From contig CAVRCS010000004.1 of assembly GCA_963719635.1 (NCBI GenBank), forward strand, positions 459,465-523,464: a stretch of 64,000 nucleotides of DNA. Reading direction: 5' to 3'. Below the pieces are notes generated by a model. The model was not told the origin of the DNA and did no database searches. It worked only from the letters and a program-made list of their open reading frames with translations. A program made the position numbers and the translations under genes. The DNA comes from an uncultured Thermoplasmata archaeon (GTDB lineage Archaea > Thermoplasmatota > Thermoplasmata > Lutacidiplasmatales > UBA184). Below, piece after piece: positions 42,330 through 46,726 of the stretch (its first letter is position 1; every line of letters starts with the position of its first letter).

Positions 42330-42521
42330 AGGGCGCATCGAGGAGGGGTGAGGTACTTGGGGTTGCTGAGGACGACCGGTGTCGGACCGGCGACCGGGGC
42401 CTGGTCCGGCGGTGCCGGGCGAAGATGCCGCCCCGCGGTGCGCCCGTCCGGAGCCCGTGCCGGGGCGGCGTAGCACCCGCTCCCGCTATACTCCGGCCGG
42501 CCTGCCACTCCCCGTCGGCCG

Positions 42522-43316
42522 ATGGAGTTCTTCTGGCGCGAAGAAGGCGACCCCGCGCAAGGTCCCGGCACCGGCGCCGTCCTGCTCTCCTCGTTCCCGA
42601 GCGCGGGCCTCGCCGCGACGGTGGCGAGCCACTACATTGTCCGCTCGCTCAAGCTTCCGCGCGTCGCGCGGTTCGAATCACCGGACGTCGCGCCGATCGC
42701 CGTCGTCCAAGGCGGCGAGGTGAACCCGACGATCCGGGTCTACGGGCGTCCGGGGCTCGGCCTCGTCCTCTCCGAGTTCCCGCCCCTCGCCGCCCAGCTC
42801 TCCCCGCTCGCGACGACGATCCTGGACACCGCCGAGCGGCTAAAGGCGCGCCTGATCGTCTGCCTCGAGGGCGTCGTCCCGCACCCCGACCCTGACCACG
42901 ACGGGGGAACGCCGGCCAGCACCGCCGACGAGAGCGTGTGGGCGGCGTTCTCCCGCCGGGACCCGGCCGTGCTCGCGTCGTTCGCGAAGACCCAGGCCCG
43001 TGCGTTGGAAGACGGGGTCATCGGCGGGGTCTCGGGGGCGCTCCTAGTGCAAGGAATCGGTCGAAAGGTCCCGGTCGCCGTCATCCTGGTCAGCACTCGG
43101 GCCGCCGAGGGGCTGCCGGACCACCGCGCCGGCGCCGTGCTGATCGAGTCCCTCGACCGCCTCCTGCCGGAACTGCAGATCGACACCGGTCCGCTGCGCA
43201 AGCAGGCGGCCGAGATCGAGAAGATGCTGCGCAGCGCGATGAAGACGCGTCCGGGCGCGCCGACCGCGACCGCGGTCGATGCCGAGGCCCCGCCCGGCAT
43301 TGGGATGTACGGCTGA
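42522..43316 (+). CDS. PAC2 family proteasome assembly chaperone
   Basis: FPSAGLAATVASHY, GVSGALL, PD.RA, ID..PL..QA.EIE. Confidence 0.85.
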   Translation: MEFFWREEGDPAQGPGTGAVLLSSFPSAGLAATVASHYIVRSLKLPRVARFESPDVAPIAVVQGGEVNPTIRVYGRPGLGLVLSEFPPLAAQLSPLATTILDTAERLKARLIVCLEGVVPHPDPDHDGGTPASTADESVWAAFSRRDPAVLASFAKTQARALEDGVIGGVSGALLVQGIGRKVPVAVILVSTRAAEGLPDHRAGAVLIESLDRLLPELQIDTGPLRKQAAEIEKMLRSAMKTRPGAPTATAVDAEAPPGIGMYG

Positions 43317-43350
43317 GCCCAGACCGCGCCGGCGGGGCCGCGTTTAGGCC

Positions 43351-43518
43351 TTACCCGAACGTTTCGCGGTACGTCAGCAGGTAGAACGCCCCAACGATCA
43401 TCAGGGCGATCATCGCGAAGATCGACACGGGGTTGGACGAGAACCAGGCGACGGTCACCCCGATCAGCCCGGCGGGGACCGCCAGGAGACCGATGCCGGT
43501 GACGAGCTTGCCGTCCAT
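43351..43518 (-). CDS. 55-aa two-TM microprotein (not in ORF track)
   Basis: MDGKLVTGIGLLAVPAGLIGV...FYLLTYRETFG; TTAAGA box about 25 nt upstream. Confidence 0.65.
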   Translation of the reverse strand: MDGKLVTGIGLLAVPAGLIGVTVAWFSSNPVSIFAMIALMIVGAFYLLTYRETFG

Positions 43519-43598
43519 CCCCCGGCCGAGGCGGTGGGTCTCTTAACGGTACGCGGCAGGTGGGCGAGGGAAGGGGGGGCTTCCCTCGCCCGGCATCA

Positions 43599-44513
43599 TC
43601 AGGGGCTAGGGGACGGCGGCCCGCTCGAGACGACCTCGAACGTGAGCTCCGCCTCGGCCCCGACCCGGGCCGCCGGTAGGACCGGCGGGAGTTCGGGCCC
43701 GAGCGGGGACACGGGCGGGTATTGGCCGGGGTACGCGAGCGTCTCGGACGCGACGACGGAGGGGATCTCGGGTCGCAGGAGCGGCTCGGCGTTGTACGCG
43801 GCGAGGAGCGCCTCGGCCGGGGCGAGGATCGCCTGCTCGAGGTGGTCGCCGATCACCTCCGACCAGTGGCGGCCGACGGCGCCGAAGGCGCGCGCTCCGA
43901 ACGACGCGATCAGCTTCTCGTTGTCGAGGACCTCGAGGGTCGCGTGGCCGCGTTCGCGCTTCTCGGCGAACGCCTCCACGAGGCGGAGGCGGCCGATCGC
44001 CCGCTCGGCGAGCGCCCGGCGCTCGCCTTCACAGCGGAACGGCTTGATCACGAAGACGCTCACCACCGCCGCATGGCGGGAGGCGAGCTCGAGGAGGTGG
44101 GGAAGGGCGCCGCTGCCGGCCCCGCCGCCCAGACTGCCGACGATGACGACGAACGAGGCCCCCTGGAAGATGCCCCGCAGCGACGGCTCGGCGGCGCGCG
44201 CGAGGACCCCGGCGACGACGGGCGAGCCGCCGGTGTCGACCTCCTCGCCCGTCTCCGGGCCGAGGTAGACCTGCCGGTCGTACTCCTCGTAGCGGTGGAC
44301 CTTCGGGTCGCAGTTGATCGCGACGGTCTCGACGTGGGGCAGGTGCTTCGCGGCGATCGCCCGGCCAATGTGGACCGCTCCGCCCCCGACCGTCACGAGG
44401 ACGACCCGGAGCTCCTGGCCCAAGCGCAGCGCCGACGGGACCTCCTCGAGGATCCGTTCGGCTACGCGCGTTCGGTTTCGTTCGTCGTCGTTCCACCCCG
44501 TCGTTTCCGTCAT
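43599..44513 (-). CDS. Divergent FtsZ/tubulin-family protein, GTPase N-domain only
   Basis: VGGG, AINCD, GGSP, LGGGAGSG, PF..EG.RR, DNEKL are collinear with FtsZ; no T7 loop or C-domain. Confidence 0.75.
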   Translation of the reverse strand: MTETTGWNDDERNRTRVAERILEEVPSALRLGQELRVVLVTVGGGAVHIGRAIAAKHLPHVETVAINCDPKVHRYEEYDRQVYLGPETGEEVDTGGSPVVAGVLARAAEPSLRGIFQGASFVVIVGSLGGGAGSGALPHLLELASRHAAVVSVFVIKPFRCEGERRALAERAIGRLRLVEAFAEKRERGHATLEVLDNEKLIASFGARAFGAVGRHWSEVIGDHLEQAILAPAEALLAAYNAEPLLRPEIPSVVASETLAYPGQYPPVSPLGPELPPVLPAARVGAEAELTFEVVSSGPPSPSP

Positions 44514-44546
44514 GCAACCAGCCCGACCGCCCGTCCGACGCTTGCC

Positions 44547-45047
44547 CTACCGCCCGACGACCCCCTTACGCTGGAGCTCGCGGCCGCTGTCGGAGAGTTC
44601 CCCGACGCGGGTCCGCGTCTCGACCGCCTCTCGGTTCCGCTCGCGCGCGTGCTGAGCGAGGTCGTGCACCTTGGCGTCCTTCTCTCCGTACCGGAAGATC
44701 TGGGCCAGGGCGTCCCTCACGTCGGCGTTGTTCATCACGTGGCGAGCATAGGCGATGGTGTCAGCGTACTCCTCCGGCTTGAGTCGGATGGCGACTTCGA
44801 CGTAGCCCTCCGAGTCCACCGCAGGGGTCGGCGTGCTGGACATCGCTCGGGACCGCAGGAACGCGTGCAGCGAGGCCCTCAAGAGCTCGGACCGGGTCGG
44901 ATACTCGCCCGAAGAGACGAACGAGTCGACCAGGCGGAGTTCGGAGAGGGTGCACCGCAGCGCGATGCGCGCGTCCTCACGGTCACGACGGGTGGCCTCG
45001 GGCCCGCTTGCGCGGTCCTTCTTCCCGTCCCGAGCGTTGTCGAACAC
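44547..45047 (-). CDS. Ribbon-helix-helix (CopG/CdrS-like) regulator, probably tandem RHH
   Basis: IALR...VDSFVSSGEYPTRSELLRASL; a second VAIRL...DVRDAL unit. Confidence 0.7.
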   Translation of the reverse strand: MFDNARDGKKDRASGPEATRRDREDARIALRCTLSELRLVDSFVSSGEYPTRSELLRASLHAFLRSRAMSSTPTPAVDSEGYVEVAIRLKPEEYADTIAYARHVMNNADVRDALAQIFRYGEKDAKVHDLAQHARERNREAVETRTRVGELSDSGRELQRKGVVGR

Positions 45048-45170
45048 AGTCGAACAAGACCATTGGCATTTCTGATACTTAAACAGGGGGAGGGGTTATC
45101 GACTGAAACCGTTCGAACCACGCGGGGTCGTGGCTGCTGACGTGTCGAACAAATATCGGTGTCGTCGAAC
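45039..45170. promoter_or_regulatory. Repeated GTCGAAC(A) boxes around the RHH promoter; TATA TTTAAG about 35 nt upstream
   Basis: Copies at 45039, 45049, 45144, 45164 plus the variant GTTCGAAC at 45111. Confidence 0.5.
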
Positions 45171-45421
45171 GCCCCCCTCCCTCCCGATGTCGATTGTATA
45201 ACCGCCCGATTTTCCACGCAGAGAACCTGGCGAGCGCCGGGTGGTGCAGGGCCCGCGGGCAGACGCGACCGACCCGCGCGCGCGCGGTCCGCGCAACGAG
45301 CACGGGCGCCGAGCGGGGCCGTCGGAGCATCGACGAGGACGCCCTCGCAGTAACAAAGAATTAAATCGAGGGGGCCGCGCTTGTTTCATGAGCCGCCTTC
45401 CGGGGCGGCGTCGAGGATTGT

Positions 45422-46726
45422 GTGACCGAGGGCGACGCCGCCGCGCAGTTTGCGCAGGAGGCGCGCGCCTCCGGCCTCGCGCTCCCGACCAGCCGTCGCT
45501 TCAACCTGCGCACCGTCGCGGTAGTGATCGCCGTGCTGATCGCCGGCTCGCTCGTGTTCGGTTATACGACCCACTGGGTGACCCTCAACCGGGCGGCGCC
45601 GAACCCGCTCGCCGAGCTTCCCGGATGCCCCGCCGCGGGCGTCAGCCTCCAGGTCGAGGTCGAGGCCGGCGCCGCCGCCGGACTCGCCGCGCTCTGGCCG
45701 TCCCTTGCGTCGGGGTTCTCGACGTCGACGGGCGGATGCCTGTCGGTCACTTCCAACTCGAGCGCCTCCGCGTTCGGCCCGCTCGCCGCCAAGAGCTCGG
45801 ACGCGGTCGTCGGGCCGCTTCTCCCCACGGGGGGCCCGCTCGCCGCCGACACGTACGCGGTGCCGCTCCTCCTCTCCCCGCTGTCGATCCTCGTCAACGA
45901 CGACGGCCTCGGGAGCGCCGTCAACGTCTCGGCCGCCGCTCTCGCGGGGGCGTACCTCGGTTCAATCGCCACGTGGGGAAGCGGGCTGCTCGCTGGCCCG
46001 AACCCCGGCAGCCACTCGAGCGCGAACGTGTCAGTCGTCTCCCTCCCGGGCCCGTCGGAGGCGAACGCTCTCTTGTCGGAGTACCTGAGCGAGCGAAACT
46101 CCACGTTCCAGGGGGAGGTCGGCGCGGGGGCCAATGTCAGCTGGCCGGACGGGGTGGTCGCCTCGAGCGCCGCCGAGGTCGCGACGCTGGTCGCCTCGAC
46201 GCCGGGTCGGATCGGCTACGTCCCCACGGACGTCTGTGGCTCGCTCCCCGTCGGCGTCATCTGCGCGGCCGTGGAGTCCGCCCCGGGCGTCTTCACCCTC
46301 CCGTCCGCCTCCACGGTCTTCTCGGCCGAGGCGCTCCTCGCGAACACGACCGCGGCCCAGGCGAACGACTGGACGAACCTCAGCGGCGTCGCCCCGCTCG
46401 CCCCGGGCGTCTACCCGATGGTGGAGGTGACGTACGCCACTCTCTACCGGGATCTCGGGACGGCCTACGGCGCGAGCCTGGACCTCAACGACTCCAAATG
46501 GCTCGTCGCCGCGTTCTTCTGGGTGGCCGCGGACACGTCCAGCGCGCCGGGGCTCCTGGCATCGCCGTACGGCTACTTCCCGGTCTCCGAGCAGCTCGGC
46601 TTCGAGGCGGAGAAGGCAGCGTTGAGCGTCACCTACCTCGGAAACTGGGTCCTCCTGCCCCCGAGCGCGATCTCTCCGAGCGACCCCGAGGCGGGAGAGG
46701 GAGGGGGAGAGACCGGTGAGTTCTAG
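45422..46726 (+). CDS. Membrane-anchored PstS-like substrate-binding protein (divergent)
   Basis: N-terminal TM; LAGAYLG.IATW, YLS, V...PGRIGYV, YPMV..TY segments resemble the PstS/PBP2 fold. Confidence 0.6.
   Translation: MTEGDAAAQFAQEARASGLALPTSRRFNLRTVAVVIAVLIAGSLVFGYTTHWVTLNRAAPNPLAELPGCPAAGVSLQVEVEAGAAAGLAALWPSLASGFSTSTGGCLSVTSNSSASAFGPLAAKSSDAVVGPLLPTGGPLAADTYAVPLLLSPLSILVNDDGLGSAVNVSAAALAGAYLGSIATWGSGLLAGPNPGSHSSANVSVVSLPGPSEANALLSEYLSERNSTFQGEVGAGANVSWPDGVVASSAAEVATLVASTPGRIGYVPTDVCGSLPVGVICAAVESAPGVFTLPSASTVFSAEALLANTTAAQANDWTNLSGVAPLAPGVYPMVEVTYATLYRDLGTAYGASLDLNDSKWLVAAFFWVAADTSSAPGLLASPYGYFPVSEQLGFEAEKAALSVTYLGNWVLLPPSAISPSDPEAGEGGGETGEF

Follow-up and report, generated by a model that had tools for sequence, protein, structure and literature searches.

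Organization of the Locus

The 64,000-nucleotide (nt) stretch of DNA analysed here, hereafter the window, belongs to contig C4 of a 1.83-Mb, five-contig genome (82.6% complete) from an uncultured Thermoplasmata archaeon. On its reverse strand it carries, from upstream to downstream, a gene for a ribbon-helix-helix (RHH)-type protein of 166 amino acids (aa) (44547-45047), a gene for a 304-aa protein that corresponds to the division protein FtsZ as far as helix H7 and that we call half-FtsZ (43599-44513), and a gene for a 55-aa protein with two predicted transmembrane (TM) segments (43351-43518). The first two genes are separated by 33 nt, and 80 nt lie between the half-FtsZ stop codon and the 55-aa gene. 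The trio lies between a PAC2-family gene and a FEN1 gene, and tblastn searches of the whole genome found no second copy of the RHH, half-FtsZ, or 55-aa protein.

An earlier note, made from the letters of the window, had described the RHH and half-FtsZ open reading frames (ORFs), which do lie where it placed them, and had argued that no frameshift could hide a C-terminal domain behind half-FtsZ; with 80 nt left before the next gene, there is indeed no room for such a domain. Its description of an RHH gene directly upstream also stands, but the encoded protein is three times the size of the archaeal regulator CdrS and shows two RHH-like repeats in its sequence. Absent from that note were the conserved 55-aa membrane-protein gene and a conserved peptide at the C-terminus of half-FtsZ (ELTFEV).

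The GC content of the window is about 71%, its DNA was matched in four DNA runs from one soil-metagenome study and in no RNA run listed, and those database relatives that bear names are called 'Thermoplasmata archaeon'. PADLOC and PHROGs returned no match for the RHH, half-FtsZ, or 55-aa proteins, and an Rfam scan of positions 42400-46000 gave sub-threshold hits only, the best being ASdes with 25.8 bits (cut-off 40).

Sequence and Predicted Fold of Half-FtsZ

Half-FtsZ scored above the cut-off of Pfam PF00091 (48.7 bits, cut-off 33, aa 37-176) and below that of the ftsZ equivalog model TIGR00065, to which it aligned over aa 34-177 only (69.6 bits, cut-off 295.2). Solved FtsZs were matched at E 8e-13 with the single sequence and at 1.2e-16 with the family profile, in alignments that stop at aa ~179, and a profile-profile comparison (hhalign) with 18 canonical FtsZs of the class extended the alignment to column 228. 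An AlphaFold model built on a 59-row alignment had a mean predicted local distance difference test (pLDDT) score of 81.8, above 90 over aa ~40-235 and with blocks of 92-98 at aa 101-230. In it, strands and helices follow one another as S1-H1-S2-H2-S3-H3-S4-H4-S5-H5, an extra helix at 180-187, S6-H6, and a 36-residue helix H7 at 211-246, beyond which the chain is modelled without secondary structure, at a lower pLDDT of 54-71. The 50 best Foldseek matches of this model were all FtsZ (E about 1e-12), and VIA-align superposed its residues 28-235 onto residues 8-203 of Staphylococcus aureus FtsZ (Z 25.4, root-mean-square deviation 1.9 Å, 192 aligned), the aligned part of the latter stopping at the start of T7. 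The collinearity through H7 claimed in the earlier note is thus upheld by the superposition, sequence searches reaching aa ~179 and hhalign column 228, and the non-tubulin fold that it had named as a possible refutation can be rejected. The name 'half-FtsZ' is an accurate description.

Four regions can be delimited along the gene (all on the reverse strand). A nucleotide-binding core (aa 29-178, 43980-44429) spans S1 to H5 with loops T1 to T5 and is modelled with pLDDT 85-98; its net charge and pI are ordinary beside those of FtsZ N-domains (17 rows). It is followed by aa 179-238 (43800-43979), comprising a family-specific helix insert (180-187), S6, T6 (LDNE), H6, and the long H7 (211-246 in the model), then by a variable Pro-rich linker (aa 239-272, 43698-43799) with low column conservation and pLDDT 54-63, and finally by a conserved C-terminal peptide (aa 273-295, 43629-43697; PELPPvLPAA..GAeAELTFEV), in which E289, L290, and E293 are invariant. 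Across 59 half-FtsZ sequences 48 columns are invariant, with conserved blocks before S1 (LRLGQ..R) and at T1 (VGGGA), T2 (ETVAINCDPKV), T3 (DTGGSPVVGG), T4 (SLGGGAGSGALP), T5 (KPFRCEGERR), T6 (LDNE), and H7 (F..V..HW...I..H.E...LAPAEA), the last including the invariant W217 and E234.

Motifs were counted over 120 family members. The T4 loop reads GGGAGSG in 115 of them and GGG[TS]G[TS]G in four, with GGG.G.G in all 120, and half-FtsZ itself lacks the tubulin signature GGGTG(T/S)G at this place. DTGGSP (T3) was found in 106/120, LDNE (T6) in 118/120, and PF.CEG (T5) in every member. To call these nucleotide loops degenerate, as had been done before, is an overstatement for the genus, because the Thr-to-Ala change in T4 is itself conserved (115/120); GGG.G.G is universal, T3, T5, and T6 are near-invariant, and true degeneration appears in two other genera of the family.

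The absence of a T7 loop, in contrast, applies to the whole family (NxDxxD or NxDxx(D/E), 0/120), the two canonical FtsZs of the genome keeping it as NLDFND and NLDYAD. The C-terminal domain is gone as well: PF12327 (FtsZ_C) had no Pfam match in half-FtsZ and was found by a whole-genome scan in three other places only, and a search of the PDB with the last 130 aa alone retrieved nothing (best E 0.19). The tail is Pro-rich (23% Pro), as the earlier note had it, but it closes with a conserved peptide whose motif E[LIC]x[FLI]E occurs in 119/120 members and in every other genus sampled. In its layout half-FtsZ is an FtsZ without the T7 loop and the C-terminal subdomain, with core, linker, and C-terminal peptide still in that order.

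Conservation and Selection

A protein database search with half-FtsZ gave 335 matches, the top 120 of them 259-323 aa long and carrying PF00091 only, and the length of ~305 aa is kept in more than 100 database clusters. Among 1.84 billion representatives, 21 were matched at E ≤ 1e-30, all of 321 aa or less, followed by a steep drop in score and then by ordinary FtsZs. The best match outside the family was an ordinary FtsZ of 370 aa. Within the genus, 18 of the 24 other genomes contain a full-length half-FtsZ orthologue (46-61% identity). A family-profile search matched 146/179 genomes of the Thermoplasmata family, in 7/7 genera (118/149, 5/5, 1/1, 3/4, 2/3, 8/8, and 9/9), and 63 of the 72 high-quality genomes of an order-level draw, with no match in the six genomes of two sister families. 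One unpublished genome (G019, locus L021) is a single row or locus among many in the alignments and locus counts, and two others (G178 and G179) enter the family-level and class-level tallies only; no claim hangs on unpublished genomes alone.

Of five genomes of the genus scored as negative, two have FEN1 at the end of a contig and three gave no FEN1 match, for which reason these absences look like assembly gaps. A search for PAC2 in the same five genomes, less informative than that for FEN1, detected paralogues at other loci only. As a side observation, FEN1 stands exactly at the contig ends of seemingly cassette-less genomes (G084:C83:1-861; G086:C39:10309-10812), and the locus may assemble poorly.

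Selection was estimated as the ratio of nonsynonymous to synonymous substitution rates (dN/dS; Nei-Gojobori, pairs with dS of 0.05-1.5), in a set that includes one duplicate locus pair (L009 = L029) and in which dS is probably underestimated at this GC3. The median over 442 pairs was 0.31 for the whole half-FtsZ gene, the neighbouring PAC2 gene had a median of 0.27, and the partner genes gave 0.35 (RHH, median) and 0.44 (55-aa). Within half-FtsZ, the values were 1.16 for the N-terminal 28 aa, 0.18 for the core, 0.50 for aa 179-238, 0.99 for the linker, and 0.39 for the C-terminal peptide.

In DNA of 71% GC, where long spurious ORFs abound, a decaying or truncated ftsZ pseudogene or a gene-calling artefact might be suspected; either reading sits badly with the ~305-aa length of more than 100 database clusters, the core dN/dS of 0.18 with its 48 invariant columns, the confident fold prediction, and the presence in all seven genera, and we give it practically no credence, regarding it as already refuted. 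Orthologues of full FtsZ length in relatives, which the earlier note had taken as a potential sign of decay, were not found among the 21 matches at E ≤ 1e-30, and the constraint on the core argues against the neutral evolution that it had also considered. Half-FtsZ is a selected, conserved gene and not a product of decay.

The Upstream RHH-Type Protein and Its Promoter Region

The gene upstream of half-FtsZ (44547-45047, reverse strand), directly adjacent and co-oriented in 30/31 loci, encodes by its sequence a CdrS-like protein of the RHH type, with two RHH-like repeats and a long C-terminal helix ending in KGVVGR. Repeat 1 (aa 27-66, 44850-44969; RIALRC...ELRLVDSFVSSGEYPTRSELLRASLHAFLR) matches the CdrS model, and 17 orthologues share in it RIALRC..EL.LVDSFVa.GEf.tRSELmRaALhAFLR. 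Among these 17 members, Pfam RHH_1 matched 14 (best E 8.8e-7), the NCBIfam CdrS model NF058555 was the commonest NCBIfam match (17/17, best E 1.3e-7), with all scores below its cut-off of 100 bits (20.9 bits for the window protein), and a ParD-antitoxin model matched 16, below curated cut-offs. ParD/CopG-type structures in the PDB were matched by repeat 1 at E 0.04-0.2, and relatives are annotated as 'Arc/MetJ-type ribbon-helix-helix transcriptional regulator'.

A second strand-helix-helix-like stretch appears in the 17-orthologue alignment at aa ~83-122 (44682-44801; VEVAIRLKPEEY...), for which the model has helices at 91-103 and from 110 onward, and this pattern suggests a tandem RHH arrangement. 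The remaining part (44550-44681) belongs to a 50-residue helix in the monomer model (110-160; pLDDT 78.5, predicted template modelling score 0.36), and closes with KGVVGR, invariant in the 17 orthologues, or with the related motif (D/E)L(E/Q)R(K/Q)G(V/Y/F)(V/L)G in other genera.

The regulatory region was compared across 30 orthologous loci from 29 distinct genomes (L009 = L029), with positions given relative to the RHH start. A GTTATAC box (45196-45202, reverse strand) lies at -156 ± 1 in 30/30 loci, and a first operator-like GTTCGAC box (box 1, 45164-45170, reverse strand) begins 32 nt downstream of it, conserved as GTT[CT]GAC at -124 ± 1 in 25/30. Judged by its spacing to box 1, GTTATAC may serve as the TATA box for a promoter further upstream, P1. 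Box 2 (45144-45150, reverse strand) is part of the conserved block TTGTTCGACACGTCAG and was found at -104 in 30/30 loci, GTTTGAC variants included. The proximal promoter would be marked by the TATA-like box TTTAAGTA (45076-45083, reverse strand), 36 nt upstream of the GTG start, with a sequence of this type (TT[TA]A[AT][AG]TA) at -36 in 29/30 loci. Box 3 (45039-45055, reverse strand; direct-repeat family D1) overlaps the start codon (GTG TTC GAC AA), with an extra copy 10 nt upstream, and GTT[CT]GAC is found at +2 in 30/30 genus loci and in 8/9 loci of other genera, the ninth (L045) having GTCCGAC. The palindrome GTTCGAAC (45111-45118) is an extra box in this genome that is not conserved in most orthologous loci.

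AT-rich boxes thus sit 32-38 nt upstream of boxes 1 and 3 and, with the usual archaeal spacing between TATA box and start, a GTTCGAC box would lie at each predicted transcription start. Both the extended box GTTCGACACGTCA and the pair GTTCGAC-N13-15-GTTCGAC occur once in the 1.83-Mb genome, at the RHH promoter. The genome has 16 other TGTTCGACA sites, 11 of them within coding ORFs, and no division gene is preceded by any of these 16; GTTCGAM was counted 50 times in the window, with 24.9 expected. This arrangement suggests that the RHH protein represses its own gene through the GTTCGAC boxes.

Two observations concern the same region. The RHH gene is separated from a divergent PBP-like gene (45422-46726, forward strand) by a long intergenic region of 374 nt (45048-45421), and the GTTATAC box could equally serve a promoter on the other strand.

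An RHH gene followed after 33 nt by a possible effector, with operator-like boxes that overlap promoter and start codon, recalls a regulated-inhibitor pair of the toxin-antitoxin type. The RHH protein would then both repress the operon and bind and neutralise half-FtsZ, free half-FtsZ would arrest division, and the pair would work as a brake released by a signal; loss of the C-terminal subdomain leaves one face of H7 bare, and the RHH protein might cover it with its 50-residue helix and end motif. The scores of repeat 1 with ParD antitoxin models (16/17) and its ParD/CopG matches fit this idea, as do the long helix (110-160 in the model) with an end motif kept across genera and an H7 that retains W217 and E234 with no domain to cover them. 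In Haloferax volcanii, overexpression of cdrS alone inhibits division and that of the cdrS-ftsZ2 operon stimulates it (PMC8406309). Type II toxin-antitoxin systems are, however, patchy and mobile, whereas this module is strictly vertical, single-copy, and syntenic throughout the family, and PADLOC found nothing; we consider the inhibitor pair doubtful.

The order of boxes, DNA-binding adaptor, and tubulin-like NTPase with a conserved tail also fits tubC-tubR-tubZ, and phage PhuZ and TubZ polymerise using their tails. Half-FtsZ might, by analogy with tubC-TubR-TubZ and parC-ParR-ParM, form a tail-to-core polymer, with the RHH protein on its boxes as adaptor and centromere in a self-assembling, DNA-positioning system. 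In the ESM Atlas, which lacks half-FtsZ of the window itself, the language-model neighbours of homologue P0074, which are a lead only, were its own Thermoplasmatota clusters and then viral tubulin/TubZ-like clusters (0.85-0.91), and in the PDB there were weak matches to RepX (E 0.007) and, with the family profile, to PhuZ (E 2.5e-4). FtsZ is far closer by sequence (1e-16) and by fold (Z 25, all top 50 matches), TubZ and PhuZ are two-domain proteins that keep both domains, there are three boxes only, at one chromosomal site, PHROGs gave nothing, and the locus is chromosomal, syntenic, and vertically inherited. A positioning system is accordingly very improbable.

The Downstream Hairpin and the 55-aa Two-TM Protein

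Directly after the half-FtsZ stop codon there is a GC-rich hairpin with a 12-bp stem (43562-43591, reverse strand; -26.6 kcal/mol, z -4.71), as stable as which none of 200 shuffled sequences proved. At the corresponding place, orthologous loci carry hairpins that differ in sequence, the shuffle control having been run for the hairpin of the window only. Next comes a TATA-like box, TTAAGAGA (43539-43546, reverse strand), 28 nt upstream of the 55-aa start codon (ATG), with similar TTAAG/TTTAT boxes at the same distance in orthologous loci. Given a box of this type at this spacing, which is a putative promoter element, the 55-aa gene probably has its own, leaderless promoter.

In an 18-sequence alignment with hydropathy, the 55-aa protein is hydrophobic at aa ~5-25 and again at ~30-50, with an invariant N29-P30 (SNP) turn between the two segments, and its invariant residues include M1-D2-G3, P15, N29, P30, G43, and Y50. 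Its gene adjoins that of half-FtsZ in 30/31 loci of the genus and in 8/10 loci of other genera; one of the two exceptions among the latter ends 143 nt past the half-FtsZ gene (L049) and the other has no such gene in the ~700 nt that remain (L046). Outside the family, the 55-aa gene is absent beside analogous genes and short FtsZs.

At the exceptional locus of the genus (L036, G114:C137), unrelated sequence replaces the 55-aa gene, PAC2, and FEN1, and a rearrangement or a chimeric contig is possible. In one other genus (L041:3373-4267, L042), genes for a PIN-domain (VapC-like) protein and an AbrB/SpoVT-like protein are inserted between the half-FtsZ and 55-aa genes.

FtsZ Paralogues and a Class-Wide Family of Short FtsZs

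The genome holds four PF00091 genes, of which half-FtsZ is the fourth. One canonical FtsZ is encoded next to secE/nusG/L11 and a second in the C5 region (G000:C5), which answers the call of the earlier note for a full-length ftsZ elsewhere in the genome. The third, Z3, is a divergent, full two-domain paralogue of 309 aa with a T7-like NVDLAS and a weak FtsZ_C match (24.7 bits). A SepF gene is present in the same genome. Z3 is preceded by a gene for a 135-aa protein with two RHH-like repeats (the pair at G000:C1:338442-339793, L003:1028-2379), and Z3 may be the fast-evolving FtsZ2 of the lineage. BLASTP comparisons of half-FtsZ with Z3 and of the 166-aa RHH protein with the Z3-side RHH protein were insignificant, and hhalign of the RHH family against the latter gave a probability of 25%. 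In five other genomes of the class, each non-FtsZ1-like paralogue examined has such an RHH gene upstream, and the members of the two FtsZ1-like clades have none.

Other features were noted around these paralogues. TGTCA repeats overlap the start codon of the Z3-side RHH gene, and Z3 has orthologues elsewhere in the family, in other genera. At G000:C5:137900-140600, the second canonical ftsZ is preceded not by a cdrS-like ORF but by a 1.5-kb stretch of lower GC (55-60%) and a 330-aa transposase-like ORF.

Half-FtsZ is not the only short FtsZ of the class. In a search for such forms, all of the top 120 matches were 257-310 aa long and carried PF00091 only, several of them named Methanomassiliicoccales or Methanomassiliicoccus sp., and they are annotated as 'cell division protein FtsZ' or 'hypothetical'. 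Their T4 is the canonical GGGTG[TS]G in 118/120, a strict T7 motif occurs in none of the 120, and their globular part stops after H7, at the same point as that of half-FtsZ. A class-level profile draw of 201 genomes (E ≤ 1e-55) produced 628 matches, with short forms read from the 150 listed; at least 11 of the 30 families sampled, Methanomassiliicoccales included, have short frames among the matches listed, and the tally of 177/201 genomes includes canonical FtsZs and is therefore not a count of short forms. Directly upstream of the short FtsZ gene, 6/6 loci have an RHH gene that matches the profile of the window RHH family (E 7e-14 to 2.4e-8), and four of these loci have three or four TATGACA(A) boxes around a TATA box, which share a GACA core with the GTTCGACA boxes of the window.

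Individual loci illustrate the range of these forms. Canonical-looking short FtsZs of 261-290 aa, with neither T7 nor C-domain, are found in L082-L087 and L069 (G278, G320, G344, G326, G033, and G307), and divergent short FtsZ-like genes of other families lie behind RHH genes in L071 (G025:C22) and L067 (G031:C19), one with the T4 loop LGGHTSS and the other with MGGGTATG.

Compared by hhalign, the half-FtsZ family gives its best score with the short FtsZs (156.7), with lower scores for canonical FtsZ (128.1) and Z3 (78.5); the short FtsZs themselves are much nearer to canonical FtsZ (score 439) than to the half-FtsZ family (157). In a quick maximum-likelihood tree the half-FtsZ clade has a support of 100 and falls outside the FtsZ1-like clades, with a sister group that the tree does not resolve and with the short FtsZs not joined. 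Approximately unbiased (AU) tests, whose groups were chosen with the tree already in view, did not reject a clade of half-FtsZ plus a six-row short clade (p-AU 0.295) and gave a p-AU of 0.0497 for a five-row version without a nested row.

Judged from these sequence comparisons, the half-FtsZ operon is plausibly the family's fast-evolving branch of a class-wide module of RHH gene plus short FtsZ, to which it would be orthologous, and we read this module as a paralogue of the cdrS-ftsZ2-type layout. The 'derived paralogous operon' of the earlier note is thus correct in that an RHH gene with an ftsZ-like gene recurs as a paralogous layout in the class, but it is not unique to this genome, being a branch of a class-wide family.

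The tails of the short FtsZs bear on a further explanation, in which half-FtsZ would avoid filament ends and act as a competitor for FtsZ tails or as an adaptor of the ring, its tail peptide binding SepF or the two-TM protein and its N-domain sensing GTP or playing a structural part at the membrane or ring. A tail (A/P)E(L/M)(I/V)xA is found by regular expression in 57/120 short FtsZs, the tail of a divergent short FtsZ in another family closes with EVLDITFLIEE (half-FtsZ of the window, AELTFEV), and those of the FtsZs encoded in the genome itself with ELELVQ and VIDLVR; this apparent likeness is short, and the archaeal 'GID' motif is absent. The layout of core, linker, and peptide is under selection, with the peptide kept even where the GTP loops decay, and the two-TM gene adjoins in 30/31 loci, but the protein exposes almost nothing outside the membrane and is absent beside the short FtsZs outside the family. 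SepF is encoded in the genome, and archaeal SepF binds the FtsZ C-terminal domain (PMC8178401). We regard tail competition as rather unlikely.

Proposed Role in Cell Division

The reading that we prefer, with a confidence a little short of an even chance, is that the locus is a conserved cell-division accessory module composed of an RHH autorepressor and half-FtsZ, which would tune the assembly of the ring, alongside a separately promoted two-TM protein. The RHH and half-FtsZ genes would constitute a two-gene transcription unit, with the RHH protein most likely binding and repressing its own promoter or promoters at the predicted transcription starts, and half-FtsZ would still bind nucleotide in most lineages. 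Half-FtsZ would probably tune the division ring and not build it.

How it might do so can be framed from what is known of FtsZ. FtsZ consists of two domains that fold on their own and are connected through H7 and T7, and its catalytic site is made up of the nucleotide site of one N-domain and the T7 loop of the next monomer (PMC7327170). With its nucleotide ('top') face present and its T7 ('bottom') face absent, half-FtsZ could neither activate a neighbour nor extend a protofilament, and it would be, on paper, a natural bottom-capper. FtsZ filaments add subunits at the bottom, mutants in the bottom interface block division, those of Du et al. show substoichiometric toxicity, and GTP turnover separates cappers from sequesterers (bioRxiv 10.1101/2020.02.25.965095). 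Half-FtsZ may accordingly act as an end-capper by binding the T7 face that FtsZ1 or FtsZ2 filaments expose at their growing (bottom) end. Its C-terminal peptide could also occupy a partner that normally holds FtsZ tails, the retention of linker and tail peptide suggesting that half-FtsZ may go where FtsZ tails go. The proposal of the earlier note that half-FtsZ could cap or sequester FtsZ stays conditional, as it is drawn solely from the lost T7 loop and C-terminal subdomain. A stronger version, in which an undescribed, class-wide tubulin-superfamily protein, a single-domain 'hemi-FtsZ' that arose by loss of the T7 loop and of the GTPase-activating subdomain, would serve as a substoichiometric FtsZ end-capper restrained by the long RHH helix on the bared H7, the two forming an autoregulated brake derived from FtsZ, seems to us unlikely.

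Several findings weigh against the accessory-module reading or against parts of it. The half-FtsZ core is just 20-27% identical to solved FtsZs and its clade sits on a long stem (1.67), so the top face may no longer fit FtsZ. The H7 residue responsible for guanine specificity in FtsZ is not conserved in half-FtsZ, as read from the alignment. T1, T3, and T4 are degenerate (VGGAA; GGEAGT/GGETGS) in two other genera (L041-L044, L049; P0130, P0131) that keep T5, T6, the tail peptide, and both partner genes, which suggests that in these orthologues nucleotide binding has been lost and the gene retained; T1 and T4 are likewise degenerate (e.g., LGGHTSS) in analogous proteins of two other families. 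As the loops degenerate while tail and partners persist, GTP-dependent docking cannot be the universal core of the function. On the side of the regulator, the monomer model does not bear out the RHH fold, drawing RHH strand 1 as a helix, and Foldseek found nothing with it at E ≤ 0.001, although its best matches were RHH proteins (ArtA, ParD, CopA, and Rv0298; E 0.32-6). Finally, the conservation of box 3 may come from the coding of the N-terminus MFDN/K or from translation of a near-leaderless mRNA.

Very few regulators of archaeal FtsZ-based division are known. Should the capper or brake reading prove true, half-FtsZ would give archaeal FtsZ assembly its first negative regulator that is encoded as a protein and acts by a clear mechanism. 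Irrespective of this, half-FtsZ is a natural experiment on the two-domain logic of the tubulin family, in which a stand-alone nucleotide-binding half has been kept over long evolution. The locus offers a defined, testable module of three parts (regulator, half-FtsZ, and small membrane protein) with candidate operator boxes mapped, and it is linked to a larger short-FtsZ family in Methanomassiliicoccales, where cultured strains exist. In addition, short forms that are annotated simply as 'FtsZ' can mislead counts of FtsZ paralogues in archaeal genomes.

Comparison with Known Systems

Like canonical archaeal FtsZ1 and FtsZ2, half-FtsZ has a Rossmann-type N-domain with T1 to T6 and H7 (Z 25, 1.9 Å), followed by a disordered linker and a conserved C-terminal peptide. 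It differs from them in the absence of the T7 synergy loop and of the C-terminal subdomain, in its GGGAGSG T4 loop, in the 10-residue helix insert after H5, and in an H7 lengthened to ~36 residues.

With the cdrS-ftsZ2 operon of Halobacteria, where a CdrS of ~55 aa is co-transcribed with ftsZ2 (Darnell 2020, PMC7439475), the locus shares an RHH gene directly upstream of an ftsZ-family gene and probably co-transcribed with it, as well as an RHH repeat 1 that scores best with the CdrS model (17/17). Unlike CdrS (~55-61 aa, one RHH), the window protein has 166 aa, two RHH-like repeats, a long helix, and a score below the cut-off, and its partner is half-FtsZ and not FtsZ2. CdrS of H. volcanii binds 18 sites (Liao 2021, PMC8406309), whereas the boxes of the window are unique to their own promoter.

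Half-FtsZ can also be placed among the divergent NTPases of the tubulin superfamily, together with FtsZl1 (Pfam Tubulin_2) and TubZ/PhuZ. Assignment to Tubulin_2 (PF13809) was rejected at 11.4 bits (cut-off 27); FtsZl1 shows no recognisable similarity over T6-H7 or to the FtsZ C-domain and has a coiled coil and an alpha-helical C-domain of its own (PMC2875224). On the side of TubZ/PhuZ, RepX was matched at E 0.007 and PhuZ at E 2.5e-4, against 1e-16 for FtsZ, and the 50 best fold matches were all FtsZ. A survey of archaeal tubulin-family proteins lists, in its available part, patchy 'non-canonical' members, with the half-FtsZ architecture not among them (PMC9856176). No description of an archaeal N-domain-only FtsZ was found in the literature, including the accessible portions of PMC9856176 and PMC9871819, although supplementary tables, that of Darnell 2020 (Table S1) included, might list such proteins; the class-wide module of RHH gene and short FtsZ is apparently undescribed.

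Truncated FtsZ paralogues of Hyphomicrobiales, such as Agrobacterium FtsZ1, keep the GTPase domain and lose the linker and/or the peptide (Aubry 2026, PMC13732431). Like them, half-FtsZ is an additional FtsZ copy encoded away from the main division locus, for which a tuning or inhibiting part in division is proposed, but it is their opposite in architecture, since it loses the C-terminal subdomain and T7 and keeps linker and peptide.

We know of no natural FtsZ-derived capper. By analogy, half-FtsZ would resemble MciZ, SulA, and engineered bottom-face mutants in adding to an end and offering no next face; MciZ and SulA are unrelated small proteins on the FtsZ bottom face, whereas the capper proposed here would be FtsZ-derived (bioRxiv 10.1101/2020.02.25.965095).

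A further parallel is provided by the short FtsZ and RHH module of the class. Half-FtsZ differs from the short FtsZs, whose T4 is GGGTG[TS]G in 118/120, in its altered T4 and in the two-TM gene downstream, but like them it has PF00091 as its sole Pfam match and a globular part that stops after H7, with a linker and a tail beyond it, and stands directly downstream of an RHH gene, whose promoter in the window has, as in short-FtsZ loci, repeated xGACA boxes around the TATA box.

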